Part shown: positions 17,770 through 64,000 of the stretch, piece after piece
How positions within the stretch are numbered: the first letter of the stretch is position 1
Layout of the letters: each line of letters starts with the position of its first letter
Assembly: GCA_051294375.1 (NCBI GenBank)
Contig: CM119264.1
Location: 5,544,218 to 5,608,217 of the forward strand
Source of the DNA: Paraspadella gotoi
Lineage: Eukaryota > Animalia > Chaetognatha
Length of the DNA: 64,000 nucleotides
Direction of reading: 5' to 3'
Notes under the pieces: generated by a model
What the model was told of the DNA's origin: nothing
What the model saw: the letters and a program-made list of their open reading frames with translations, nothing else
The model's database searches: none
Program-made: the position numbers and the translations under genes

Positions 17770-18529
17770 TTCCTCTCCTGGCCTTTCTGTTTGTCTGTTT
17801 CTGTCTTCTTTCTTTTCTTTTCTTTTCTTTCTTTCTTTCTTTCTTTTCTCTCTTCTTCTTCTTTCTTTCTTCTTTCTCTCTTCTCTCCCCCCCCTCCCTC
17901 CCTCCTTCTCTCTCTCTCTCACTCTCTCCTCCTCNNNNNNNNNNNNNNNNNNNNNNNNNNNNNNNNTCTCTCTATCTCTCTCTCTCTCTCTCTCTTACAA
18001 CATGACAATAATAAACTAGAATTCCTCAAAAGACTTCTTTTTCTCGCTATGGGCTAACTAAGAAATATTAAGTACTGTTGATGACATACTTCCACAACAG
18101 TACATATAAAAAAAATGCACTAAGAAAATTGTTGGTCCAAGTATCAAAATTGGTGTCAAACTCCAGTCGTTTGTTTTCTTTAAATTTAAATTACATCCGT
18201 GAGACAAAATCAACAGGGGGAGCCGCAGTAAATAAGTGAAATATATGTATGAAATTCTACCGCTACACATACTAGAATGTTCCGATCTATGATTAATTCA
18301 AAATACTTGACAAGCAAAGTAAAAATAGCACAAGGGCTGCGAGGGAAAAGTGAATAGCGACGTTAGGTTCCATTTCGTTTGCCATTACTTTCCATATTTG
18401 TTTGGAATTGCTTGCCATCGTTGCTTGCCAATGCTTGCCAATGCTTGCCATCGTTTGCCACCAAGTTATTAAAAAGCGCTGAAGAGGAAACCTGAAATAC
18501 ATCATTTCCACCGAGGGAAGAGCCATTTC

Positions 18530-18564
<35 letters not shown>

Positions 18565-19356
18565 TCTCCTGGCCTTTCTGTTTGTCTGTTTCTGTCTTCT
18601 TTCTTTTCTTTTCTTTTCTTTCTTTCTTTCTTTCTTTTCTCTCTTCTTCTTCTTTCTTTCTTCTTTCTCTCTTCTCTCCCCCCCCTCCCTCCCTCCTTCT
18701 CTCTCTCTCTCACTCTCTCCTCCTCTCTCTCTATCTCTCTCTCTCTCTCTCTCTTTACAAATGGACAATAATAACTAGAATTCCTCAACAAAGACTTCTT
18801 TTTCTCGCTATGGGGCAACAAGAAATATTAAGTACTGTTGATGCGACATACTTCCACAACAGTTACATATAAAAATGCACTAAGAACAATGTTGCGTCCA
18901 AGTATCGCAAATTGTGGTGTCAAGACTCCAGTCGTTTGTTTTCTTTAAATTTAAAATTACATTCCCGTGATGACAAAGCTCAACAGGGAGTCCGCCAGTT
19001 AAATAAGTGAAAATAATGTATATGAATCTGCACCGCTACACATACATAGAATTGTTCCATCTATGCATTCAATCAAAATACTTGACAAGCAAAGTAAAAA
19101 TAAAGCATCGAAGGGCTGCGAGCGGGAAAGTGAATAGCCGACGTTTTAGGTTCCATTTCGTTTGCCATTACTTTCCAATTATTTGTTTGGAATTCTTGCC
19201 ATCGTTGCTTGCAATTGCTTGCCAATGCTTGCCATCGTTTGCCACCAAGTTATTAAAAAAAGACGCTTGAAGAGAGGAAACCTGAAATACATTCATTTCC
19301 CACCGAGTGGAAGAGCCGATTTGTCTCTCTCTCTCTTCTCCTCTCTCTCTCTCTCG

Positions 19357-21150: not shown

Positions 21151-23235
21151 ATTTCTTTCTTTCCTCATTCACCCTCGAGTCGAGATCAAAAGAGAAGCGC
21201 GTAAAGATGAGAAGACGTTTCGTCTGCTCCTCTTCCCCTCCTCATTCCTCCTTCACTCCTTCACAACCTCGCTCCACCCATCCCGCTCCCCCAAGGATTG
21301 CTCCTGTTCTTTCTCCTTCCAGTCTCTCGTGATTCGTCCTCATTGTAGTCACCAGGCGGATCAGTGTACGGGCTGTGAATCAGTGCAGTCGGGTGGATCT
21401 CTTCTACACTTGCAATGTTCATTCCTTTTTTCCTCTTATTCCTGTATTCGGTTCCATGATGAAATAAGGTTTATATGTGGCAAGTAAACGGGACGAGGTT
21501 CAGATCGAGAATGAATTCATTCTCCAACAACATTTACAAAAACAGTAAACAATAGCTTTACCATGGAGGTAAAAAAGCAATATATATCTTTGGAAGTATG
21601 AAAAAGCGTCTTTCTTTTCTTTATTTTCAACGTTTTTATTTCCCATTCTCTCGCCTTAGCACATATATTCCTAAAAAAAAACCGAAAAAAACCCAAACCC
21701 CATTAACCTTAGTTCCGTCTAAACCTTTGCGAACCTGAAATCCTTTTTTTTTTTCACTTTGCCACTCTGAACTCACCGTCCTTACCTTTCCTCTTGACCC
21801 GCCTAAAATCCATTTTAGCCTTTTCTCTCTTTCTTCGCGAGTTCATCCTTTTTTTTTCCTCAACCCTTTTCAAACTGCCTTTTACCCTCTGTCCCATCCC
21901 ACCCTCCAATTTTCTCCCTTTCGCGAACGACGAAACCCGACGCCACCCATGCGTCCCACGCCCCCCTTTAACGGTGCCGGTGGAGTTTGTTACGCCCCAT
22001 TGCGCAACCCCGACCCAAAACTCAGAATCCGAACTAAGAGGGTACTAAACCACTCTCTAATGGACGACGCGGTAACTTCGAGGCATCCGGAATATTAAAC
22101 ATTGTAAAAAAGCTACTAAAAAAAAGTTACTATTGATAAATATCAAGTCTTTTTAAATAGTAATTACTCATAATCATTAACAGTTAATAACCTCAACTAA
22201 CTTTTTATTTTAGTTTAAATCTAGTTTAACATTCTACAAATATATTTTAACAAAACCATATATATTATGAATGTATTGATTCAACCGTGCTGCCCATAAA
22301 CCTTTCCCTCCCGGACTTCACTGCATCCCCAAAGTTCAAAGACTTTTCGGGTTAAAGGCCGATCACTAGATTGATAGATGTGTGTATTTCGATTGACTGG
22401 CTCTGACAGTTTACAGATTCGCTTAAATTCTCGTATAGATTGCTCTCTGTTATTACCCCGATACCCTGGATTGCTTTGACGCAATGGCTTTAGAAATAGC
22501 ATTTTTATTTTTATTATTTAGTCCTTCGAGTAGATATTTTTTTTTCACCTCTTTCTCAACCGGTCAACCTCAATTTACTACTCGCAAATATTTATCCTAA
22601 TTCATTTTTCGTTTTCGCTCGTCGATCCAAGTTAAATCAATTAGACTTGATTGTTTAATTCTCTAATTGATCGATTTTTTTTTTACCGGGTCTGCCGTGT
22701 TAGATTATTATGCTTTTGACTTATCATTCAGGTCAAAATATGTTTAAAGAAAGATAAGTTTATTGAAAAGAAAAGTAGCACTAAAATTTTTTTAAGTCTC
22801 AAGAAAACTGAAACGCTCGAAAACGTCGTTAATTGGGACCTTCAGCCCAAAGTCGATTTTAAATACTATGGCTTATAAAAGTTTGGCAAATGAAAGATAT
22901 GATTAATTGGAACCAGAAGAAATGGGCCTGTGACTATACAATGTTTTATGAGATAACAATATCAAAAAAGAAACATTCATTATCTAAAAAGAGTTTCAAG
23001 AACTAATATTCTTTACGACTTTTAAGAAAATGAAATAAATCCGGTTTTTTATAAAATCCCTGTATCCAATTATTGCTACCAACTATTTTTTTTTTAAATA
23101 CCAACTCCAACTGCCTAAACCACTTTTCTCCCTTCATTACATTTTTATTACTAGAAACATTTTGAAACATTTTCTATTGTTATTATAATTATTATTATTT
23201 TTAATTTTATAATTTTTTCATGCAATAAATAGAAA

Positions 23236-23323
23236 ATGATGCGTTTCCTTCTCCCGTTTCTTCTCTCGGGATCGATTTTCCTGCCGGCGTTGGTTCAAGC
23301 CACAGGAGTCAAACTATACGTGG
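23236..23323 (+). CDS. Secreted-type glycine-rich RRM protein, copy 1, exon 1 (signal-peptide-like leader plus RRM beta1)
   Basis: agaaaATGATG start. Translates MMRFLLPFLLSGSIFLPALVQA-TGVKLYV. Phase-1 donor G|gtaagc at 23324, same position as in copy 2. Confidence 0.82.
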
Positions 23324-23596
23324 GTAAGCGAGCATTGTACATTGTACCGGACATTGCACCTCGCGCCACTATGTATCGGCGGGTTAGATGCCCCTTCCCA
23401 CTTTCTTGTTTGAATCGCGTGAAAGCGAACCCTTTGACCTGTACTTCCTAAGGCGATCTTCGAACGAGTCGTGGAGTAATATGTACTAACACGACAATAT
23501 AATTACAGACGTTAACGAGATGCAAATTTTACCTTTTGTGAATAAACTAAACATCTTATTCATCAGCCATTTCCTTTCCCTTTCCTCCCCGGTCAG

Positions 23597-23807
23597 ATAA
23601 TCTGGACTCTTCAACTACAGAAGAAGACCTTCTTCCCCACTTTAAAGAGTGGTGGCAAGGGTCACGTTTCTGATGTCAACATCATTACGGACCGTGACAC
23701 GGGGCGTAGCAAAGGATTCGCCTTCGTCACTTTGGATGGTCAAAACACAACCAAAGCAGCTGTGGACGCCCTTGACGAAACTGAGCTCAATGGGCATAAG
23801 ATCAAAG
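23597..23807 (+). CDS. Secreted-type glycine-rich RRM protein, copy 1, exon 2 (RRM core, frameshifted as assembled)
   Basis: Acceptor ggtcag ending 23596. Reads (D)NLDSSTTEEDLLPHF, then two single-base deletions relative to copy 2 (about 23644-23654), then KGHVSDVNIITDRDTGRSKGFAFVTLDGQNTTKAAVDALDETELNGHKIK. Donor G|gtagag at 23808. Confidence 0.8.
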
Positions 23808-24160
23808 GTAGAGCGAGGGTTTTGTGTCTTGCCTCGATTACTCGCGAAGTATCTGGGTCTTTGTCTGTCTGTAAGTTTTGTAGTTTGTCTATCTGTCCAT
23901 CGGTCTCTCCTGCTTATAGATGCGTTATTCTTGTGTAATATTGAATCAATTTGATTTTGATGCTATATCATGAGACGCTTCTTGTTCATTTATTTCATCC
24001 TTGTGAAATGCTACAATAAAGGATAATAAGGCGTAAAAATTTGTAATTATTTTCCTTCTTATTCTCTTTGACCTATCCGTCCAATTTCGCTTTATGTCTC
24101 AATATTATCAATTTAATACGAATTCCTATGCTCACGAAATGTTTTTTTTTCTAAATATAG

Positions 24161-24679
24161 TTAATTTGGCGCAGTCAAGAAGGCAGGGCGGACCCGTTGG
24201 ATTTCCGAGTCACCCAAACTCCTAAGAAGAAGAGAGAGTGGAGGTGGATGGGGGAGGAGGAGGAGGTGAACGCTACGGTGTGGTGGCGGTGGTGGCGGTG
24301 GTGGGGAGGGGATATCGTGATGGAGGTTACGGTGGAGGTGGTGGTAACGGTGGTGGTAGCGGTGGTGGCTATCATGATCGCCATGGAGGTGTGGCGGTGG
24401 TGGCGGACGTTATGGTGGTGGCGGATGGTGGCGGGGTGACTATCGTGGTGGAGGTTACGGTGGTGGTGGTGGTAACGGTGGTGGTAGCGGTGGTGGCTAT
24501 CATGATCGCCATGGAGGTGGTGGTGGTGGTGGCGGACGTTATGGTGTGGCGGTGGTGGCGGTGGGTGACTATCGTGGTGGAGGTACGGTGGTGGCGGTGG
24601 TGGTCGATCCTACGAAGAGAGATTTGCCAAAGATTTAGTCTTGAAAAAATCTTCGGAAAAGTTTGAGTTCCGATGTTGA
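24161..24679 (+). CDS. Secreted-type glycine-rich RRM protein, copy 1, exon 3 (Gly/Tyr/Arg-rich tail; disrupted as assembled, 3' end uncertain)
   Basis: Acceptor tag ending 24160. Reads (V)NLAQSRRQGG..., with in-frame TAA at 24223-25. GGN-rich sequence follows, encoding GGYGGGGGNGGGSGGGYHDRHGG repeats with frame slips. One frame ends GGRSYEERF...TGA at 24677-79. Confidence 0.65.
24313..24600 (+). repeat. ~129-nt coding tandem repeat (about 2.3 units) within the Gly-rich tail
   Basis: tatcgtg[a/g]tggagg(t)tacggtgg recurs at about 24313, 24441 and 24570. ggtaacggtggtggtagcggtggtggctatcatgatcgccatggagg occurs twice. Confidence 0.85.
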
Positions 24680-25709
24680 AAGATGAGAAGAATTATATGG
24701 GTGTTGTTGTTGAAGAGACAGACTGGACCGCCTTGAAAAATGATTCATCCAAAGAATAACATTGGCCAAAAAAATAAAATTGCACCAGTAAATCCTACTA
24801 CAAATTGCTTATTCCTAAATTGTATGGGGTGTGGTTTTTATTGGGTCTTTCATGGAATTAGTATGCATGCATACTTGTTTGTTAACTTTAATAAAAATTT
24901 ATGTTCCCAGTGCTCCACTCTAATACATACGTCAATCATATGCGCAAATCCCGACTTAAAGTATTTATTTAATACTGATCTTTCTCTCATCTAATATTTT
25001 ATATTTTTTATTATCGATTGAAAATGAAAAAAATTACAAGACTTATCTGGAGGGATAGACTGGATAGACCCAGATCCTCAAATAATGATTTCAAAGTTAT
25101 TAAAAAATAAGATCAATGATTCTAAAACTTTTGAATAATATTCGATTTTTTACTTGATTAAGAACGGTCAAGTTTAAAAAAAATTAACTCTTAGACCGCT
25201 CGACCGATTGTAAAAAAAATTTATACATTTATAATTTATTTATTTTTTAAAAAACTTTATTTTTCTTAAATAACAGATAAAAATATTATTATGGAGCATT
25301 TAGATTTTAAGTTATAAAGTGGCGCGTTTTTTTACACAATGAGCGTACTGTAAATGATGGATATTTAGCTTTTGTAATAAAAAGTTTTTAAATTTTTTTT
25401 TGCTTGTTTTTAATACAAAATAAATGGTGCAAGTCTTAAAAATTGAAATCTTTCTTTTTGGTTTTTAAAAAAACCCGTGTCTCTATTTTCAACTCCCATT
25501 ATTTTTGGATCAGCATCGAGTCTTTTTTTCTTCGGATGGATGCTCTTGCTTCTTTCTTGCCAAACTCTTGATCCTCTCATCATCCTTCCCTTTTCATTTT
25601 CAGTATCACATTTCCTCTCTCAAGTTTAACCGTCTCGAAATAGTTTTTTTTTTAGTATTTTTGCGATCTATATATATAGAATATAGATAACTCTTAGCTT
25701 TACCTTTAA

Positions 25710-25930
25710 GAGACAGAATAATACTAATGGATTAATGAATAAACCGTTAATAATAAAACAGTCCCTGAACTTCGGTTCAGACTATAGCACCTCGCTATTG
25801 TCGGGTAAAATGCTCCGTCCCACTTTAATGCTATAAGGACACCCGGCGAAAATCTCGGACATTTGGGTTGGCACGCTCAATTAACCGCTGTGAAACGTTG
25901 GCGGATTTCAACCCTGCATATTAGGTACTT
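25710..25930 (+). repeat. Dispersed repeat copy (diverged match to ~49699-49940)
   Basis: Shared ordered blocks aaaccgtt / cagtccctga.cttcgg.tcag.ct / ccgtcc / ttgggttgg / ccgctg / tgaaacg / gtac. Confidence 0.65.
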
Positions 25931-26128
25931 AGTCTGGACCTAAATTATATTGAGTTATGTAAAAAGCGGCTCGCCTAAAAAAATTCAATCAACTATACGG
26001 CATTACTATTGACTATTGGCGTCTCATTGACAGACAAGTCGTTTGAATTATTCATATCTCGATGCCGATGAGAATATATTCGAAATCAAGGCGACCTACT
26101 TATTATATAGAGAGAGAGTGAGAGAAGA

Positions 26129-26188
<60 letters not shown>

Positions 26189-26509
26189 AAGAGAGAGAGA
26201 GACGATAGAGAGAGAGAGAGAGAGAGAGAGAGTTAATGGTATCAATAAAAGCTAAAGCGATTCAAATCGTACATAAGAGACCTCGGAAATCAGACTCGCC
26301 GATGATGTTAGCCGGAAAAGGGGAGGACCAAGGAAGAAACGCCGGAAAAGGGGCGTGACAGAAGTCGTCTGCCGGAAAAGTAAATGATGACGAGACGAGT
26401 GGACGCAGGAATTAGGACTGGGTCTGAATACACGTCGTCATATGTGAAATGGGAACAGGCAGGGAGGGTTAGTGATGCGAAATTTCTGCGTGATATTTGT
26501 ATTAGTTGT

Positions 26510-26595
<86 letters not shown>

Positions 26596-26842
26596 CAGAG
26601 AGGAATAAAAAGAAAGAGAGAAAAATAGAGAAAGATGCCTATCGCCACTGGTTACAGTGGTTACAGTGGTTAGGGTTGTGACAGTGTGTGGTGGCTACAG
26701 GAGTCTCGCTTGCATATTCATGAGAGATGTGTTACGGATCCATTGCGAAAGATAGTTTTGACAAGAAGCGACGATGACGACGACGACGATGACACGACGA
26801 TGACGACGTCTACGACGAAGATGAGAACAACATTCTCATGGT

Positions 26843-29800
26843 TTAGGACTCGGTTCCTCTTGAGGATAGAATAATTGAAGAGCTGAATAACGGATTGGAT
26901 GGATGGATGGATGGATGGATGGATGGATGGATGGATGGATGGACGGATGGATCGATGGATACATGGACGGATTAGAGGATGGATGAAAAGTTGGAAGAAC
27001 GAATGGATGGAATACTTCAACACGGAAAAAGTTCCATTTAACTCTGAATCGTGTAACTTTCCTTGTGAAGCGTGAGGCTCATTACCTCGTTCCTAAACCT
27101 TTAGTCTTTAAACTTCGGTCCTGAACTCTGTGCCACGAAACGTGCGTCTTGAAACTACAGCATTTGCCTAACTACAACGAACGACGACAACAAACGACAA
27201 CATCGAGAAAGCTTTCCAGATTCGAGGCAGCTTTAAAAAACAAAACAAAACGCGACCCCATTCCGCCCTCGTAGCCGACGACTCAGTCACCGGGCCTTCG
27301 GGCAAAGTCGTCGTAGTCGTCGTTCATTATCGTCGTCGCCATTGGAGTGGTTGTATGAGTCGTTGTTTCCCTCCCAGAAAAATAATATCCTTTTAACTTA
27401 AAGTTGTTATATTCGTCATTAAATTGATTTCATTATCCTGTATTTGTCATCCTAATACCAAACGTTCTCTTGGTACTTGTCATCATCGTTTTCAGCGTCA
27501 TCTTCTTTTCAGTCAGCGGAGTTGTTCTGTTCACCTTTGTCATATCTTTAATAAACTTAGTCATCGTTATCACCTTCTCAATTTTTTGCGTCTTCGTCAT
27601 TCTCTGTGTCATCTTTGTCTTATTTGCTTTATTCCTCATCGTCATCTCAGTCTTCGTCTTCTTCGTCGTCGTCATTTTCATCTTCGTCGTCTCTTCGTCG
27701 TCATCTCGTCGTCATCGCCTAGTCATCAATGATGCAAATTCCGATCTTCGATTCTCGCGCAGTTTTCCTTCATTTCTTTCGCCGGCGGCGGGGAAGGGAT
27801 TTTCCCTGGGAGAATGCGGAAAGGGGGATGGGGATCCACTTGGGGGAGGGAACGAAGAAGGGGGGAATTAGGGGGGACTGGGGGAACGACGAGTTTGGAA
27901 GTGACCCGTTGAGCCTCGCATTTCGGGTGTACGGTCGTCCCCTGCAGAATGGAGTGCTTGCAAGACTTAGCACACCCAGATTGCGGTGGGCCCATCACAT
28001 GCTGCTGTTGATTGTTGCGACGACGAGCAAGGACATTTCTGAGTGTAGGTTGCGTGCAGTTTATTTGTCGGTGGAATTTCGGATTGTAGGTCGGACCGAG
28101 GACCGTGCTGCAGTGCTCGGGCCTCGAATGAAGGTGGTTGCGTGTGCCTGAGTCCAGGTTGAGATCTCCTACAGCTTTGAAAAGTCCATGGGCGCCTAGT
28201 CGTTCTGTGTAATACTTGCGTTGTCCGTGGTATGACCTCTTTTGCTTTTCGTATTGAGACCTGGTTGTCTCATCCTTGGTAGCCCAGTTCGTCGGCTTGG
28301 CTGTCATTGACATGGTCCGCGCTTATGCTGATCCAACTTTCTGTGCTCCTGCCTCATACCGGTTTCAGCGAGTGCATCCAGCATCGCGCGCTGTCGTGTG
28401 CCCCGCGCTTCTCCCTCGGCCTACCTGTTGCTTCTTATCGGTATCATGAGATTAACGATCTCGGCGAGGAGGATTTTGTGCGCATCTGCCTTCTTTGCCA
28501 TGCTATTTTCCAAACAAGGAGGTTTGGTCTTGTAGAGAGTTGCGCGAGAGTAACTTGGCTCTGGTCCCAGCCCTTGCGTCGTCAGCGCGTTTATGCGAAA
28601 ATGCGCTCTCAAGCGTATTCCTAATACTGAAAAAGCTGTATGAGAGCACCAGTTATACTCTTTCCAAAAGGTCGCTGACTTGGAAATTAAAGAGCGAGGC
28701 ACGAAGCCGAAACCTTGGCGAATCAATGCAAAAAGACAAAAACGTGAGACGAGCGCCCCCGTTAAAATGCGCGAGCCCACGACATCTGGAACCTGGGGCG
28801 TGACCTTTGATCTTTGACGTTGATGTTAAACGCGCTTCAGCGTGAGTAAAATCACAGAAGACCGGCGGGCGATGGACACTGAGGCCGGCCAGCGTATCTT
28901 TCCTGCCCGGGAACTCTCCGCCGCGGATTCCGTCTATGATGTCTCAGAGGCCCCCGCGCGTAGTAGACGAGTTGAATCGGTCGGGACTCCTTCTGGGCGG
29001 AGGAAGACGTCTAAACAGGACGCCCAAAGAGACCTTAGGACTCTTGGAGGCGCCCTGCCTTTAGACAGCAGACAGTCACTTCACTTGGCGGTGTATTCGA
29101 TGAGCACGACAAGCGCGCGTGTATCATTTGGGCGGTTGGGCGCGCGCTGCCGCCGTTTGGGGTGAATGGGTGAAGTATCCGCTGGTTCACCTCCGATTGC
29201 CTCTAACCGTTTATCGTTTCTTGTCGTTATTAAGGAAGGGCATAGGATGAAATAAATTATTATGGACTAGCTTGAGTGTAAATGTGGAATTCGTTTGAGT
29301 CTCTTAAAAAATAATACAATGAAGATGTTACTGCTCATAAACCAGATCGCGTTAAAATGCTTGGATAGATTTGCCGTTCTGTTCATATATTAAAACCTCC
29401 ATTTTCATTCCATCAACGAAAAACCACTGTACAGGCTTAGTAGATTTTAGTTAAGTCAATTAAACTAGCATACTAGTCGAGCAAACAGTTATACGAGCTA
29501 TTCCTCACTCCGTGTAGCAATACTGGACCGCACATTAATGCGGTTATAAGATTTTTCTTCTTATTTTTCTTGCTTAGCTTAAAAATTGTTTAGGTAAGTT
29601 TCTAAGATATAAGCGCACTCCCGCTTCTACATTATATTTTATTTCACCTCCTCACGAATATAATACCCACAATAAGCGGCGAACCTAATTTGTTTTATCG
29701 TTTTCGGCGCGTAATCGATTATCAGATTAAGTCTTTATTACGTTTTTTTTTCCCAATTCACAAAGTATTAGTTCTATGCCGGGTGTAGCCGTGCATAAAT

Positions 29801-29905
29801 ATTTAGGAAAAATATTTCTCAGGCCTTAGCCAAGTGATTTTGTTTAAAATGGTCGATAATATTTTGGTAGAAGAGATAATTGGATCTTGAACTTTTTAAT
29901 TTTAC
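26843..29905 (+). other. Noisy duplicate of 29941-~31900 (probable raw long-read gap overfill)
   Basis: 26843-27905 matches 29941-31013, differing mainly by indels. 28790-29880 contains insertion-stretched versions of 31320-31900 (e.g. ggaacctggggcgtgac, cgtgtagcaatactg, caagtgattttgtttaaaatggtcga). Ends at a 25-N gap. Confidence 0.8.
26893..26985 (+). repeat. (GGAT)n microsatellite (also at ~29990-30095)
   Basis: Direct reading of tandem ggat units. Confidence 0.9.
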
Positions 29906-32394
29906 NNNNNNNNNNNNNNNNNNNNNNNNNAAGAGAGAGATTAGGACTCGGTCCTCTTGAGGATAGAATAATTGAAGAGCTGAATAACGGATTGGATGGA
30001 TGGATGGATGGATGGATGGATGGATGGATGGATGGATGGATGGATGGAGCGGATGGATGATCGATGGATGATAACATGGACGGATTAGAGGATGGATGAA
30101 AAGTTGGAGAACGAATGGATGGATACTTCAACCACGGAAAAAGTTCCATTTAACTCTGAATCGTGTAACTTTCCTTGTGAAGCGTGAGGCTCATTACCTC
30201 GTTCCTAAACCTTTAGTCTTTAAACTCTGGTCCTGAACTCTGTGCCAGAAACGTGCGTCTTGAAACTACAGCATTTGCCAACTACAACGACGACGACAAC
30301 AACGACAACATCGAGAAAAGCTTTCCAGATTCGGGAGCAGCTTTAAAAACAAACAAAACGCGACCCCATTCCGCCCTCGTAGCCGACGACTCAGTCACGC
30401 GGCCTTCGGGCAAAGTCGTCGTAGTCGTCGTCATTATCGTCGTCGCCATTGGAGTGGTTGTATGAGTCGTTGTTTCCCCTCCAGAAAAATAATATCCTTT
30501 TAACTAAAAGTTGTTATATTCGTCATTAAATTGATTTCATTATCCCGTATTTGTCATCCTAATACCAAACGTTCTCTTGGTACTTGTCATCATCGTTTTC
30601 AGCGTCATCTTCTTTTCAGTCAGCGTAGTTGTTCTGTTCACCTTTGTCATATCTTTAATAAACTTAGTCATCGTTATCACCTTTCTCAATTTTTTGCGTC
30701 TTCGTCATTCTCTGTGTCATCTTTGTCTTATTTGCTTTATTCCTCATCGTCATCTCAGTCTTCGTCTTCTTCGTCGTCGTCATTTTCATCTTCGTCGTCG
30801 TCGCGTCGTCATCTCGTCGTCATCGCCTCAGTCATCAATGATGCAAATTCCGATCTTCGATTCTCGCGCAGTTTTCCTTCATTTCTTTCGCCGGCGGCGG
30901 GGAAGGGATTTTCCCTGGGAGAATGCGGAAAGGGGGATGGGGATCCACTTTGGGGAGGGGAACGAAGAAGGGGGGAATTAGGGGGGACTGGGGGGAACGA
31001 GTTTGGAAGTGACTTGAGTAGTGAGTGCATGAGTACATCTCGTGAGGGAAGGAATTTCTGAGGTGAGTTTTATTTTCGTGATTCGGATGGTCGGACGAGA
31101 ACCGTTGTGGTTGTTGTGTTGTTGTTGTTGTTTTTGTTGTTGTTGTTGTTTGTCTTCCGGTTGAGGGTCTTTCTGTAAGGATCGGGGCTTCTCTTCGGGT
31201 CATAGATTTGCCTTTTCGAGTGAGAAAGAAAAAAGCTGATAAATTTTTAAAATCTAGGAAATTAAAGGAAAAAATTGAATCAAATGAAAAAAAGAAACGT
31301 GATAGAAAATGGAGCCGAATGGAACCTGGGGCGTGACTTTGATTTGACGTCGTTAACTTGGTGAGTAAAATCACGACATGAGACGAGTTCAGTGCGGATC
31401 CTAAACCAAAGACGTTAGAGAGAGATCACGTGATTGAGAGACGCGTGTATTTCGAATCTTCGATTGATTGGCTCTTACAGTTCACAGATTCGCTTAAATG
31501 CTTGGATAGATTGCCTTCTGTCATTCCCCCAAAAACCCTTGCTTGCTTAGACGCTCATTGCGAGCAAGTACGCTATCACCGTGTAGCAATACTGACGCAT
31601 TAATGGTAAAGATTTCTTTTTTTTTTTTGCTTAGTTAAAATTGTTTAGTATTAGATAAACCACCCGCTTTATATTTTATTTCACCTCCTCACAGATATAT
31701 ACCCACATAAGGCGAACCTAATTTGTTTATCGTTTTCGCGCGTACATCGATTAAATCAATTAGTCTTTATCGGTTTTTTTTTTCCCACATTCACAAAGAT
31801 TATTCTACCGGGTGTGCCGTGCATAAATATTAGGAAAAATATTTCTCAGCCTTGCCAAGTGATTTTGTTTAAAATGGTCGAAATATTTTGGTAGAGAGAT
31901 AAGTTTGATGGAAGGAAAACTGAAGCTTAAACTTTTTTGGTTTTCAGATTTTAAAACGTGAAAAAACCGGATCACCTGGAAAATCTCGTTAATCGCAACC
32001 ATCAACAAGTCTATCCAACCACGAGCCAATTTGAAGTACATACTATGTGCAATAACTTATATGAGTTTAAAAAGAATAAATATGATTAGGGAGAACTCGA
32101 AGAAATATACATTATTAAATATTTTTTCGACAAGCAAAAAAAAATTAGCTCCAAATATAAAAAAAATTTTAGATTTTCAAGGACGAATCTTCTATACAAG
32201 TTTTACGAAAAATAAAACCAATCCGGTTTTCTATTAAATCCCTGTATCAATATAAAAGCAAAGAACTCCAACTGGCTGAACCACTTTGGTACCGTCGTTA
32301 CATTTTTCTTTTCTCCTTGTCTTTTGAAACATTTTCTGTTGTTCTTATTTTTATTCATAGTTTTATAATTTTTTATTACAATAAATATAAAACA

Positions 32395-32479
32395 ATGCAT
32401 TTCCTTGTCCCGTTTCTCCTCGCGGGAACAATCTTCCTGACGGCGTCAGTTCAAGCGACAGGATTGAGACTCCACGTGG
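32395..32479 (+). CDS. Secreted-type glycine-rich RRM protein, copy 2, exon 1 (signal-peptide-like leader plus RRM beta1)
   Basis: ATG at 32395 in aaacaATG context. Translates MHFLVPFLLAGTIFLTASVQA-TGLRLHV(G): hydrophobic core, VQA cleavage-like motif, then start of RNP2. Ends at phase-1 donor G|gtaagc (gt 32480-81). Homologous exon at 23236. Confidence 0.85.
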
Positions 32480-32800
32480 GTAAGCAAAATTTTTCGAAGA
32501 CGGTGCCGCAAGCATTTTGACGTCGGTAGCAAACAAGTTTCAAGACTTTGGACCAAACATTATTACCCTATTAGTGGGTTAGACGCCCCATCCCGCTTTC
32601 TTGTGTTAATCAGCAGGGTGCGAACCCGACTACTTTGGAACGAGCTATCTCCGGCGCCATATACACTGTTGGTTCTTGTACACCCATTACCACAACAACA
32701 TATTTATAAACGTCAACGCGACGCAAATTTTCACTTTTGTAAATAAACTAAATATCTTATATTTAACAGCCATTTCCTTTTCCTTCTCCCTCGCGGTCAG

Positions 32801-33013
32801 GTAATCTGGACTATTCAACTACGGAAGAAGACCTTCGTTCCCTCTTTGAAAGAGTGGTCGGCAAGGGTCACGTTTCTGATGTCAACATCATTACGGACCG
32901 TGAAACGGGTCGTAGCAAAGGATTCGCCTTTGTCACTTTAGACAATCATAAATCAGCCAAAAACGCCGTCGATGTCCTGAATAGTAGTGATCTTGATGGG
33001 CGGACAATCAGTG
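32801..33013 (+). CDS. Secreted-type glycine-rich RRM protein, copy 2, exon 2 (RRM core)
   Basis: Polypyrimidine tract and cag acceptor ending 32800. Spliced frame reads (G)NLDYSTTEEDLRSLFERVVGKGHVSDVNIITDRETGRSKGFAFVTLDNHKSAKNAVDVLNSSDLDGRTIS(V), with RNP1 KGFAFVTL. Phase-1 donor G|gtgggt at 33014. Confidence 0.92.
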
Positions 33014-33353
33014 GTGGGTTGTTAGTAACTTTTCTGTCTGTCTTTGTCTGTTTTTCTGTATGTCTGTCAGTGTGTCTATTTATCTATAGGTCTGTCCTAC
33101 CTACGTTTAAATGATCGAAATTTGTGTATCATGTAATGCTGGATCAATTTGAATATTATTTGGCACACAATAGATTCTTGTTCATTTGTTCCGTGCTTGC
33201 GTTATCACGTGATTACTTAACATCGAGATACGATCTTGTTAATAAAATGTTAATACTTTTTAAAACTCAATCCGTCCAATGTCGCGTCAAGTCTCAATAT
33301 TATCAATTAAATACGAATTAAAATGCTCACTCAATTTTTCTTTTTTCAAATAG

Positions 33354-33461
33354 TTAATTTCGCGAAATCAAGAAGGCCCGGCGGTGATTCGGGATCTTCC
33401 GGCCGCTACGGGAGTGGAAGAGTTGGCGGAAAAGGAGGTGGACGCTTTGGTGGTGGCGGTG
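33354..33461 (+). CDS. Secreted-type glycine-rich RRM protein, copy 2, exon 3 (RRM beta4 plus Gly-rich tail; runs into gap)
   Basis: T-rich tract and tag acceptor at 33351-53. In-frame (V)NFAKSRRPGGDSGSSGRYGSGRVGGKGGGRFGGGG, then N gap 33462-33745. Stop codon not visible. Confidence 0.85.
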
Positions 33462-34819
33462 NNNNNNNNNNNNNNNNNNNNNNNNNNNNNNNNNNNNNNN
33501 NNNNNNNNNNNNNNNNNNNNNNNNNNNNNNNNNNNNNNNNNNNNNNNNNNNNNNNNNNNNNNNNNNNNNNNNNNNNNNNNNNNNNNNNNNNNNNNNNNNN
33601 NNNNNNNNNNNNNNNNNNNNNNNNNNNNNNNNNNNNNNNNNNNNNNNNNNNNNNNNNNNNNNNNNNNNNNNNNNNNNNNNNNNNNNNNNNNNNNNNNNNN
33701 NNNNNNNNNNNNNNNNNNNNNNNNNNNNNNNNNNNNNNNNNNNNNTGGTTCTTGAAAAGACTCGTGGGAAGAAGTTGAGGTCGGAAAGTTGAGAAAATTG
33801 TATGGTGTGGTTTTTATTGGGTCTTTGGTGGAAACGGTGCTCATTGCTCAATGTACCTACGACGTTTTTATTACATTATCCCGAGTCCAGATTTGCAATT
33901 TTCTACTCTAAATTATGGGTATATGCTTTTGTAATAAAACATTTTTTTTAATTTTTTTTGTTTGTTTTTATCTATACCAAATAAATGGTGTAAGTCTTAA
34001 AAATTGAAGCCGTTCTTCTTTTTTTAAAATTTACTTCGAATTATTTTCGTCTCCCATTATTTTTGGATCAACATTGAGTCTTCCTTCTCTCACGGATCGA
34101 TGCTCTCGCTTCCATTCTTGACAAACTCTTGATCCTCTCACGTCTCATCATTCTTCCCTTTTCGTTTTTAGTATCACATTTTCTTTAACATATTTAACGT
34201 CTCGAATTAGGTTTTAGAAAAAAGAAAAAAGCTGAAAAAGATTTAAAATCTGGGAAATGAAAAGAAAAAATGGAATCAAACGGGAAAAAATGTAGAAACG
34301 TGAGAGAAAATGGAACCGAATGGANNNNNNNNNNNNNNNNNNNNNNNNNNNNNNNNNNNNNNNNNNNNNNNNNNNNNNNNNNNNNNNNNNNNNNNNNNNN
34401 NNNNNNNNNNNNNNNNNNNNNNNNNNNNNNNNNNNNNNNNNNNNNNNNNNNNNNNNNNNNNNNNNNNNNNNNNNNNNNNNNNNNNNNNNNNNNNNNNNNN
34501 NNNNNNNNNNNNNNNNNNNNNNNNNNNNNNNNNNNNNNNNNNNNNNNNNNNNNNNNNNNNNNNNNNNNNNNNNNNNNNNNNNNNNNNNNNNNNNNNNNNN
34601 NNNNNNNNNNNNNNNNNNNNNNNNNNNNNNNNNNNNNNNNNNNNNNNNNNNNNNNNNNNNNNNNNNNNNNNNNNNNNNNNNNNNNNNNNNNNNNNNNNNN
34701 NNNNNNNNNNNNNNNNNNNNNNNNNNNNNNNNNNNNNNNNNNNNNNNNNNNNNNNNNNNNNNNNNNNNNNNNNNNNNNNNNNNNNNNNNNNNNNNNNNNN
34801 NNNNNNAAGAAGGGGCAGA

Positions 34820-37066: not shown

Positions 37067-48683
<11,617 letters not shown>

Positions 48684-52383: not shown

Positions 52384-64000
<11,617 letters not shown>

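Follow-up and report, generated by a model that had tools for sequence, protein, structure and literature searches.

A spliced, tandemly duplicated pair of glycine-rich RRM genes with a probable export signal in the chaetognath Paraspadella gotoi

The stretch of DNA analyzed here, in the following referred to as the window, comprises 64,000 nucleotides of contig CM119264.1 from the chaetognath Paraspadella gotoi (assembly GCA_051294375.1, positions 5,544,218 to 5,608,217 of the forward strand), and all positions below are counted from its first letter. It contains two genes in tandem, copy 1 and copy 2, for proteins in which a single RNA recognition motif (RRM) is followed by a glycine-rich tail and preceded by a predicted signal peptide. 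The surrounding DNA is repeat-rich, gene-poor and eukaryotic in character, with a GC content of 40%, a CpG observed/expected ratio of 1.15 and 19 gaps filled with N. Apart from the RRM pair, no gene was recognized in the window by Pfam on selected open reading frames (ORFs) or by Rfam: none of 143 of the 161 selected ORFs scanned reached the Pfam cut-off, the remaining 18 overlie both RRM genes, and the Rfam scan returned no match. The features of the locus are the following, where X9 denotes a sequencing run described below.

22336..25648, + strand: duplicated unit 1, about 3.3 kb with flanks, which align on both sides with the flanks of copy 2
23236..23323, + strand: copy 1 coding exon 1, predicted signal peptide of 22 residues (23236-23301), then the first RRM strand; two codons before the ATG there is a stop in frame; its 3' end is matched, spliced to exon 2, by a loose end in X9
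23597..23807, + strand: copy 1 exon 2, RRM core; two 1-base deletions relative to copy 2; 3' part matches RRM_1; assembled frame stops at codon 54
24161..24690, + strand: copy 1 exon 3, Gly/Tyr/Arg/Asp tail containing an internal repeat of 128 nt; several frame shifts, true stop uncertain
31406..34215, + strand: duplicated unit 2, introns and flanks 81-86% identical to unit 1
32395..32479, + strand: copy 2 coding exon 1, predicted signal peptide of 21 residues (32395-32457) and first RRM strand up to RNP2; an X9 contig covers 32379-32478 and joins exon 2
32480..32800, + strand: copy 2 intron 1, 321 nt, GT-AG, phase 1; joint skipping 321 in X9 only
32801..33013, + strand: copy 2 exon 2, RRM core, which includes RNP1 KGFAFVTL and has 3 residues inserted after helix 1; matches RRM_1
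33014..33353, + strand: copy 2 intron 2, 340 nt, GT-AG, phase 1; joint skipping 340 in X9 only
33354..33461, + strand: copy 2 exon 3, final strand of the RRM and beginning of a Gly/Arg/Ser tail; runs into an N gap (33462-33745) before any stop; an X9 contig covers 33353-33456

The exon coordinates of copy 2 given in the original prediction, which had been made from the letters alone, yield a spliced frame that is open for 135 codons until it reaches the gap at 33462 (284 N). The encoded protein shows the predicted elements in the predicted order: a leader of 21 residues ending in VQA, the dipeptide Thr-Gly, RNP2 (LHVGNL), RNP1 (KGFAFVTL) and a tail with 15 glycines within the 31 residues that can be read before the gap. 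It reads as a single RRM spread over three exons, followed by a Gly-rich C-terminal region, as in the class IVa GR-RBP and CIRBP/RBM3 proteins.

Four sequencing runs were aligned on copy 2, all in the form of contigs and none of them annotated as RNA: X9, whose listing as 'RNA?' is a guess, and three DNA runs. Only X9 shows joints at the two introns, while none of the DNA runs shows either. As these joints connect 32479 to 32801 and 33013 to 33354 exactly, at both predicted GT-AG introns, X9 is identified as RNA and the exon model of copy 2 is confirmed; copy 2 is spliced. The X9 contig also extends unbroken to 16 nt upstream of the copy 2 ATG. A further loose end in X9 joins the end of copy 1 exon 1 to exon 2, with an Asp in RNP2 as in the window copy, and therefore copy 1 is spliced as well, at intron 1.

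Pfam finds only RRM families in these proteins. RRM_1 (PF00076) matches exon 2 of copy 2 with 67.1 bits and the 3' part of exon 2 of copy 1 with 45.2 bits, at a cut-off of 20.7. RNP1, with its two aromatic residues, is identical in both copies, and together with the preceding loop it forms a nearly invariant stretch between them. RRMs in general bind single-stranded nucleic acid, and because RNP1 is intact, such binding is expected here.

The two units, about 3 kb each, are homologous through flanks, introns and exons at 81-86% identity and therefore reflect a tandem duplication of the whole locus, not an assembly repeat. That the gene pair is an assembly duplicate is ruled out by the 18-19% of substitutions and by separate contigs, and bacterial contamination as its source is ruled out by the two spliced introns and the eukaryote-like, repeat-rich flanks. 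The RRM genes form a small, spliced and tandemly duplicated family. Contigs of the runs X1 and X5 are distinct from both copies, showing 35 letter changes and 9 gaps over about 310 nt, and point to a probable third paralogue, the alternative being a very diverged allele. This third sequence retains the Ala at -1 of the leader through a silent change and has a Tyr in RNP2. At 32831, five X5 contigs carry another letter as compared to one in X1, a hint that the number of family members may vary from sample to sample. Over 32939-33270, an X1 contig skips 330 bases with ends that are not those of a splice event and with 28 letters on the short side; it possibly represents a further, deleted paralogue.

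The original prediction had described two genes with identical exon structure. Two phase-1 GT-AG introns are indeed present in both, but copy 1 is not a full ORF as assembled, two 1-base deletions having been overlooked. In the alignment, its exon 2 is short of one base relative to copy 2 after about 23643 and again after about 23653, and the spliced frame therefore ends at codon 54. In exon 3, the Gly-coding frame switches repeatedly. We slightly favor an intact, faster-evolving paralogue that was mis-assembled from long reads over a pseudogene. For an assembly error speak the two 128-nt repeat units of the tail, which differ by 3 substitutions and 5 gaps, and the near-duplicates beside 25-N gaps in the window, in which indels dominate (gaps/substitutions 19/12, 25/4 and 45/11); gaps of 25 N are marks of long-read gap filling. 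Over 32760-32861, an X5 contig with copy-1-type letters needs 1 gap where the copy 1 of the window needs 3, and among the X9 rows listed, with five further rows beyond them, none has a deletion at the place of the frame break. Note that the contigs in question were aligned on copy 2. For real decay speak a branch in the tree that is about 2.7 times longer than that of copy 2 (0.45 vs 0.17), a Pro within helix 1 of the RRM, the Asp in RNP2 and a pooled ratio of nonsynonymous to synonymous substitution rates (dN/dS) of 0.49 (P 0.02), which equally fits one constrained and one neutral copy.

Both leaders have the anatomy of a signal peptide: an n-region of 1-2 residues precedes 13-14 residues of hydrophobic core, positions -3 and -1 are occupied by Val and Ala, and acidic residues are absent. 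Their best 15-residue Kyte-Doolittle means are 2.0 and 2.2. The call was made with a crude home-made rule on the n-, h- and c-regions and positions -3/-1; 8 of the 1,687 ATGs in the window pass this rule, three of them belonging to RRM genes, and so do 0.5% and 0.01% of base shuffles of the two leaders. As had been claimed, the leader is unlike the Arg/Ser-rich presequences of organelles, with 0-1 Arg and a net charge of 0 to +1 (0 in copy 2), and a mitochondrial presequence is ruled out by the same count of Arg. The leader Met is the only one in the 135 codons of copy 2, and no in-frame Met is found back to the preceding stop.

For comparison, 220 single-RRM and 159 multi-RRM proteins were fetched, which are the top rows of RRM searches, mostly bacterial-looking, and no census. 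In 202 of the 220 single-RRM proteins the RRM begins at most 6 residues from the N-terminus, and predicted cleavage after VQA would place the RRM 2 residues from the new one; it would therefore restore the natural N-terminus of the homologues. Exon 1 shows signs of coding constraint, its 85 aligned columns being free of indels (P between 0.004 and 0.115 with different gap penalties). The pooled dN/dS of 0.49 (P 0.02) is a further such sign, and the value of 0.38 for the leader is not significant alone (P 0.14). Glycosylation sequons were dropped as support for secretion, as 198 of the 220 single-RRM proteins have one. Because of the signal-peptide anatomy, the lack of an Arg/Ser-rich make-up and the sole possible start in the readable copy 2, entry into the secretory pathway is the best reading, and from its sequence the leader is likely to route the protein into the endoplasmic reticulum (ER). 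The original proposal of classical secretion is upheld to this extent, ER entry fitting the anatomy as judged by a crude rule; the carrier, effector and defence roles that it also raised are speculative.

In a scan for close relatives of 63-202 residues, the best 120 of 891 matches were considered, and a scan for 203-2000 residues gave 14. A wider protein scan (best 150 of 17,239 matches) was dominated by multi-RRM proteins, and from at least 539 metagenome loci the best 80 were examined. The best matches are short, single-RRM, Gly-tailed proteins, with 48-57% identity among those listed, and no relative exceeded 57% among the protein and metagenome matches listed. Five of the best 120 of 891 are named by organism, all of them bacteria. 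A family-specific DNA pattern had 0 matches in metagenome and viral contigs, and a profile of leader plus RRM (best 120 of 8,000) was a poor test, its matches being dominated by the Gly tail of a single bridging protein.

Over the full 81-residue domain, single-RRM matches score up to 78 bits and domains of multi-RRM proteins at most 65. The plant GR-RBP 4c7q scores 50.8 bits and CIRBP 46.3 bits. For exon 2, the top match in the Atlas was a eukaryotic RRM cluster (0.91), followed by a bacterial one (0.88). The trees, which contained no labelled eukaryotic single-RRM protein, group both copies with the single-RRM matches (SH-aLRT 94 and 93, unstarred, 78 columns). They do not group them with those multi-RRM proteins that share the 3-residue insert after helix 1, an insert found in 14 of 773 RRM domains, all from 10 multi-RRM proteins. 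A joint clade of the query with these proteins was not rejected (p-AU 0.38 in the approximately unbiased test), while the free trees separate them. P0149, P0174, P0216, P0230, P0266 and their kin are three-RRM proteins, several with plastid-type leaders, that have the 3-residue insert in common and form a clade of their own.

A hydrophobic leader is found in 0 of the 220 fetched single-RRM proteins, but 22 of the 379 proteins fetched, all of them multi-RRM (22 of 159), do combine a signal peptide with RRMs, an occurrence that the original prediction had overlooked. Judging from a motif with Phe at +1, we assign these leaders to the bipartite plastid type known from algae with complex plastids. 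P0176, P0177, P0266 and others share with the present genes a signal-peptide-like leader on an RRM protein and, in some cases, the 3-residue insert, but they have 2-5 RRMs, a spacer that places the first RRM at residue 42-153 and, by eye, mostly Phe after the leader, whereas here a single RRM follows at residue 24, with Thr at +1 and no spacer. A tentative scenario, in our view doubtful, starts from the entry of a bacterial-type stand-alone RRM gene into the nuclear genome. The gene would have acquired two introns, along with a signal peptide exactly where its protein once began, and would have given rise to a family of classically secreted RNA carriers or effectors with targets outside the cell or in another organism; the horizontal origin is a lead only.

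The gene pair is genuine and expressed, and it represents a lineage-specific variant of the glycine-rich RRM proteins that probably carries an export signal. Our main reading, to which we give a probability of about 0.55, goes further and, as deduced from sequence, sees in it a lineage-specific, ER-routed, probably secreted and predicted RNA-binding protein family, with a single RRM and a Gly-rich tail behind a cleavable predicted signal peptide. From the gene structure, the splicing of copy 2, the RRM and the duplication, which are observed, we infer the following steps. The leader would send the protein into the ER and be cut after VQA, and the mature protein would start at Thr-Gly, like the stand-alone homologues. 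A soluble RRM with a disordered Gly/Arg/Tyr tail would be released from the cell. The RRM sheet would bind single-stranded RNA with little sequence choice, and the tail would contribute further contacts, weak but multivalent. RNA-protein assemblies formed in this way outside the cell or in a lumen might then protect, hold or deliver RNA, by analogy to MRJP-3 in royal jelly. If this is true, a canonical RRM with a Gly-rich tail that passes through the ER is a direct candidate for the stabilizing, scavenging or delivery of extracellular RNA in eukaryotes.

With the known single-RRM Gly-rich proteins (class IVa GR-RBP, CIRBP/RBM3 and bacterial stand-alone Rbp) the present ones have one RRM and a Gly/Arg/Tyr tail in common. 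The class IVa GR-RBP and CIRBP/RBM3 proteins have an N-terminal RRM without a signal peptide, whereas here a hydrophobic leader of 21-22 residues precedes it. CIRP is described as lacking a signal peptide (PMC8016797). Plant class IV glycine-rich proteins are defined as lacking one, and Gly-rich proteins that have a signal peptide and are secreted form an established class (PMC5852109). Honeybee MRJP-3 is described as a secreted, non-sequence-specific and multivalent RNA binder of royal jelly that forms extracellular granules and protects RNA (PMC6509358). Its likeness is that of a functional model only; no homology was seen with the present proteins, in which Pfam finds RRM families alone.

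The known secreted RNA binders compared have either a signal peptide and no RRM (SNARP, Zea, TsPUF) or an RRM and no signal peptide (CIRP, VdSSR1). In place of the canonical RRM found here, Medicago SNARP (PMC6056668), Listeria Zea (PMC6907008) and Trichinella TsPUF (bioRxiv 10.1101/2023.05.29.542739) are described with other domains or none known; the SNARPs are, like the RRM pair, a small lineage-specific family. Verticillium VdSSR1 (PMC8944911) is an RRM protein that acts outside the producing cell, but is described as having no typical signal peptide, an RRM of the ALY/REF type and a reported loss of RNA binding. A signal peptide directly on a single RRM was not found in the literature, covered mostly at title level and with supplements outside the scope. 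The parts of PMC5935387, PMC10799387 and PMC13389597 that were covered, again exclusive of supplements, hold nothing on such an architecture, and the chimera list of PMC13389597 could bear on its novelty.

Several observations weigh against an exported RNA-binding family. The splicing evidence comes from one run of one study, in contigs only, and is uninformative on start site and expression level; copy-1-type letters are absent at 32790-32801 in the best DNA run, X1, where they possibly fall under the 85% cut. The signs of decay in copy 1 given above count here as well. Conservation of the leader in both copies, cited in its favor by the original prediction, is real in that exon 1 is 81% identical, but it equals that of introns and flanks, is thus weak evidence and was dropped as support for a signal peptide. 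As the C-terminus of copy 2 is hidden in the N gap, a retention signal may lie there.

The core is moderately hydrophobic and could stay in place as an anchor instead of being cleaved off, or the segment might be internal to a longer protein by means of an upstream exon, so that a cytosol-facing RRM would be tethered to the surface of the ER or an organelle and localize mRNA there. RNA is abundant on the cytosolic side, the charges flanking the core are weak, the more so in copy 2, and candidate splice acceptors lie upstream of both ATGs. In copy 2, an upstream exon in the same frame could begin behind the AG at 32359, which follows a T-rich tract, and RNA cover begins only at 32379; in copy 1, an AG lies at 23231, where a 92-letter RNA loose end of copy 1 type would stop if it were colinear, although colinearity is not visible. 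We nevertheless consider an anchor unlikely, since a membrane span would usually be longer than the 13-14 residues of this core, both copies have a clean -3/-1 site, the two AGs do not occupy homologous positions and neither is conserved in the other copy, and an in-frame stop lies just upstream of the copy 1 ATG.

The proteins might also be secreted as Gly-rich structural or adhesive components, with an RRM that is decaying and no longer binds RNA. The second position of RNP2 is Tyr or Phe in 212 of the 220 single-RRM matches; it is His in copy 2 but Tyr in copy 1, and the motif is degraded differently in each copy, with His in place of Tyr/Phe in copy 2 and Asp in place of Gly in copy 1. The dN/dS near 0.5 and the known class of secreted Gly-rich proteins mentioned above would agree with such a role. 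It is improbable in view of the near invariance of RNP1 and its preceding loop, a Pfam score far over the cut-off and the canonical Tyr in the third paralogue.

The least probable alternative, delivery by the signal peptide through the endomembrane system to a complex plastid, a periplastid space or an endosymbiont, where the protein would act as an RNA chaperone, draws on the plastid-type leaders (so labelled from the motif mentioned above) and the shared insert of the multi-RRM proteins, on the joint clade that was not rejected and on the suitability of a bacterial-like RRM for a symbiont target, but is opposed by the lack of a transit peptide, the differences in RRM position and number and in the +1 residue, the free trees and the absence of any algal sign in the window by Pfam of selected ORFs and Rfam.

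Other features of the window were noted alongside the RRM pair. The segments 37067-48683 and 52384-64000 are identical over at least 11.6 kb and are spaced 15,317 apart; both begin after a 25-N gap, and the duplication is most likely an assembly artefact. Near-duplicates by N gaps that differ mostly by small indels are found at 26987-27876 and 30099-30985, at 29600-29860 and 31655-31890, and at 18000-18520 and 18760-19320. Indel-dominated near-duplicates are the signature of error-prone long-read sequence, and ORF breaks anywhere in the assembly are suspect. Between the two RRM genes, a GC-richer region at 27720-29200 contains several overlapping ORFs of 100-200 codons without a Pfam match and may be a frameshifted remnant of a mobile element or gene. 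Within intron 1 of copy 2, the interval 32541-32671 attracts numerous contigs, to a depth several-fold that of a single copy, and the DNA runs have loose ends there, which suggests a short dispersed repeat. Finally, degenerate TTAGGG-like repeats lie at 48375-48440 and in the duplicate of this interval, away from a sequence end.

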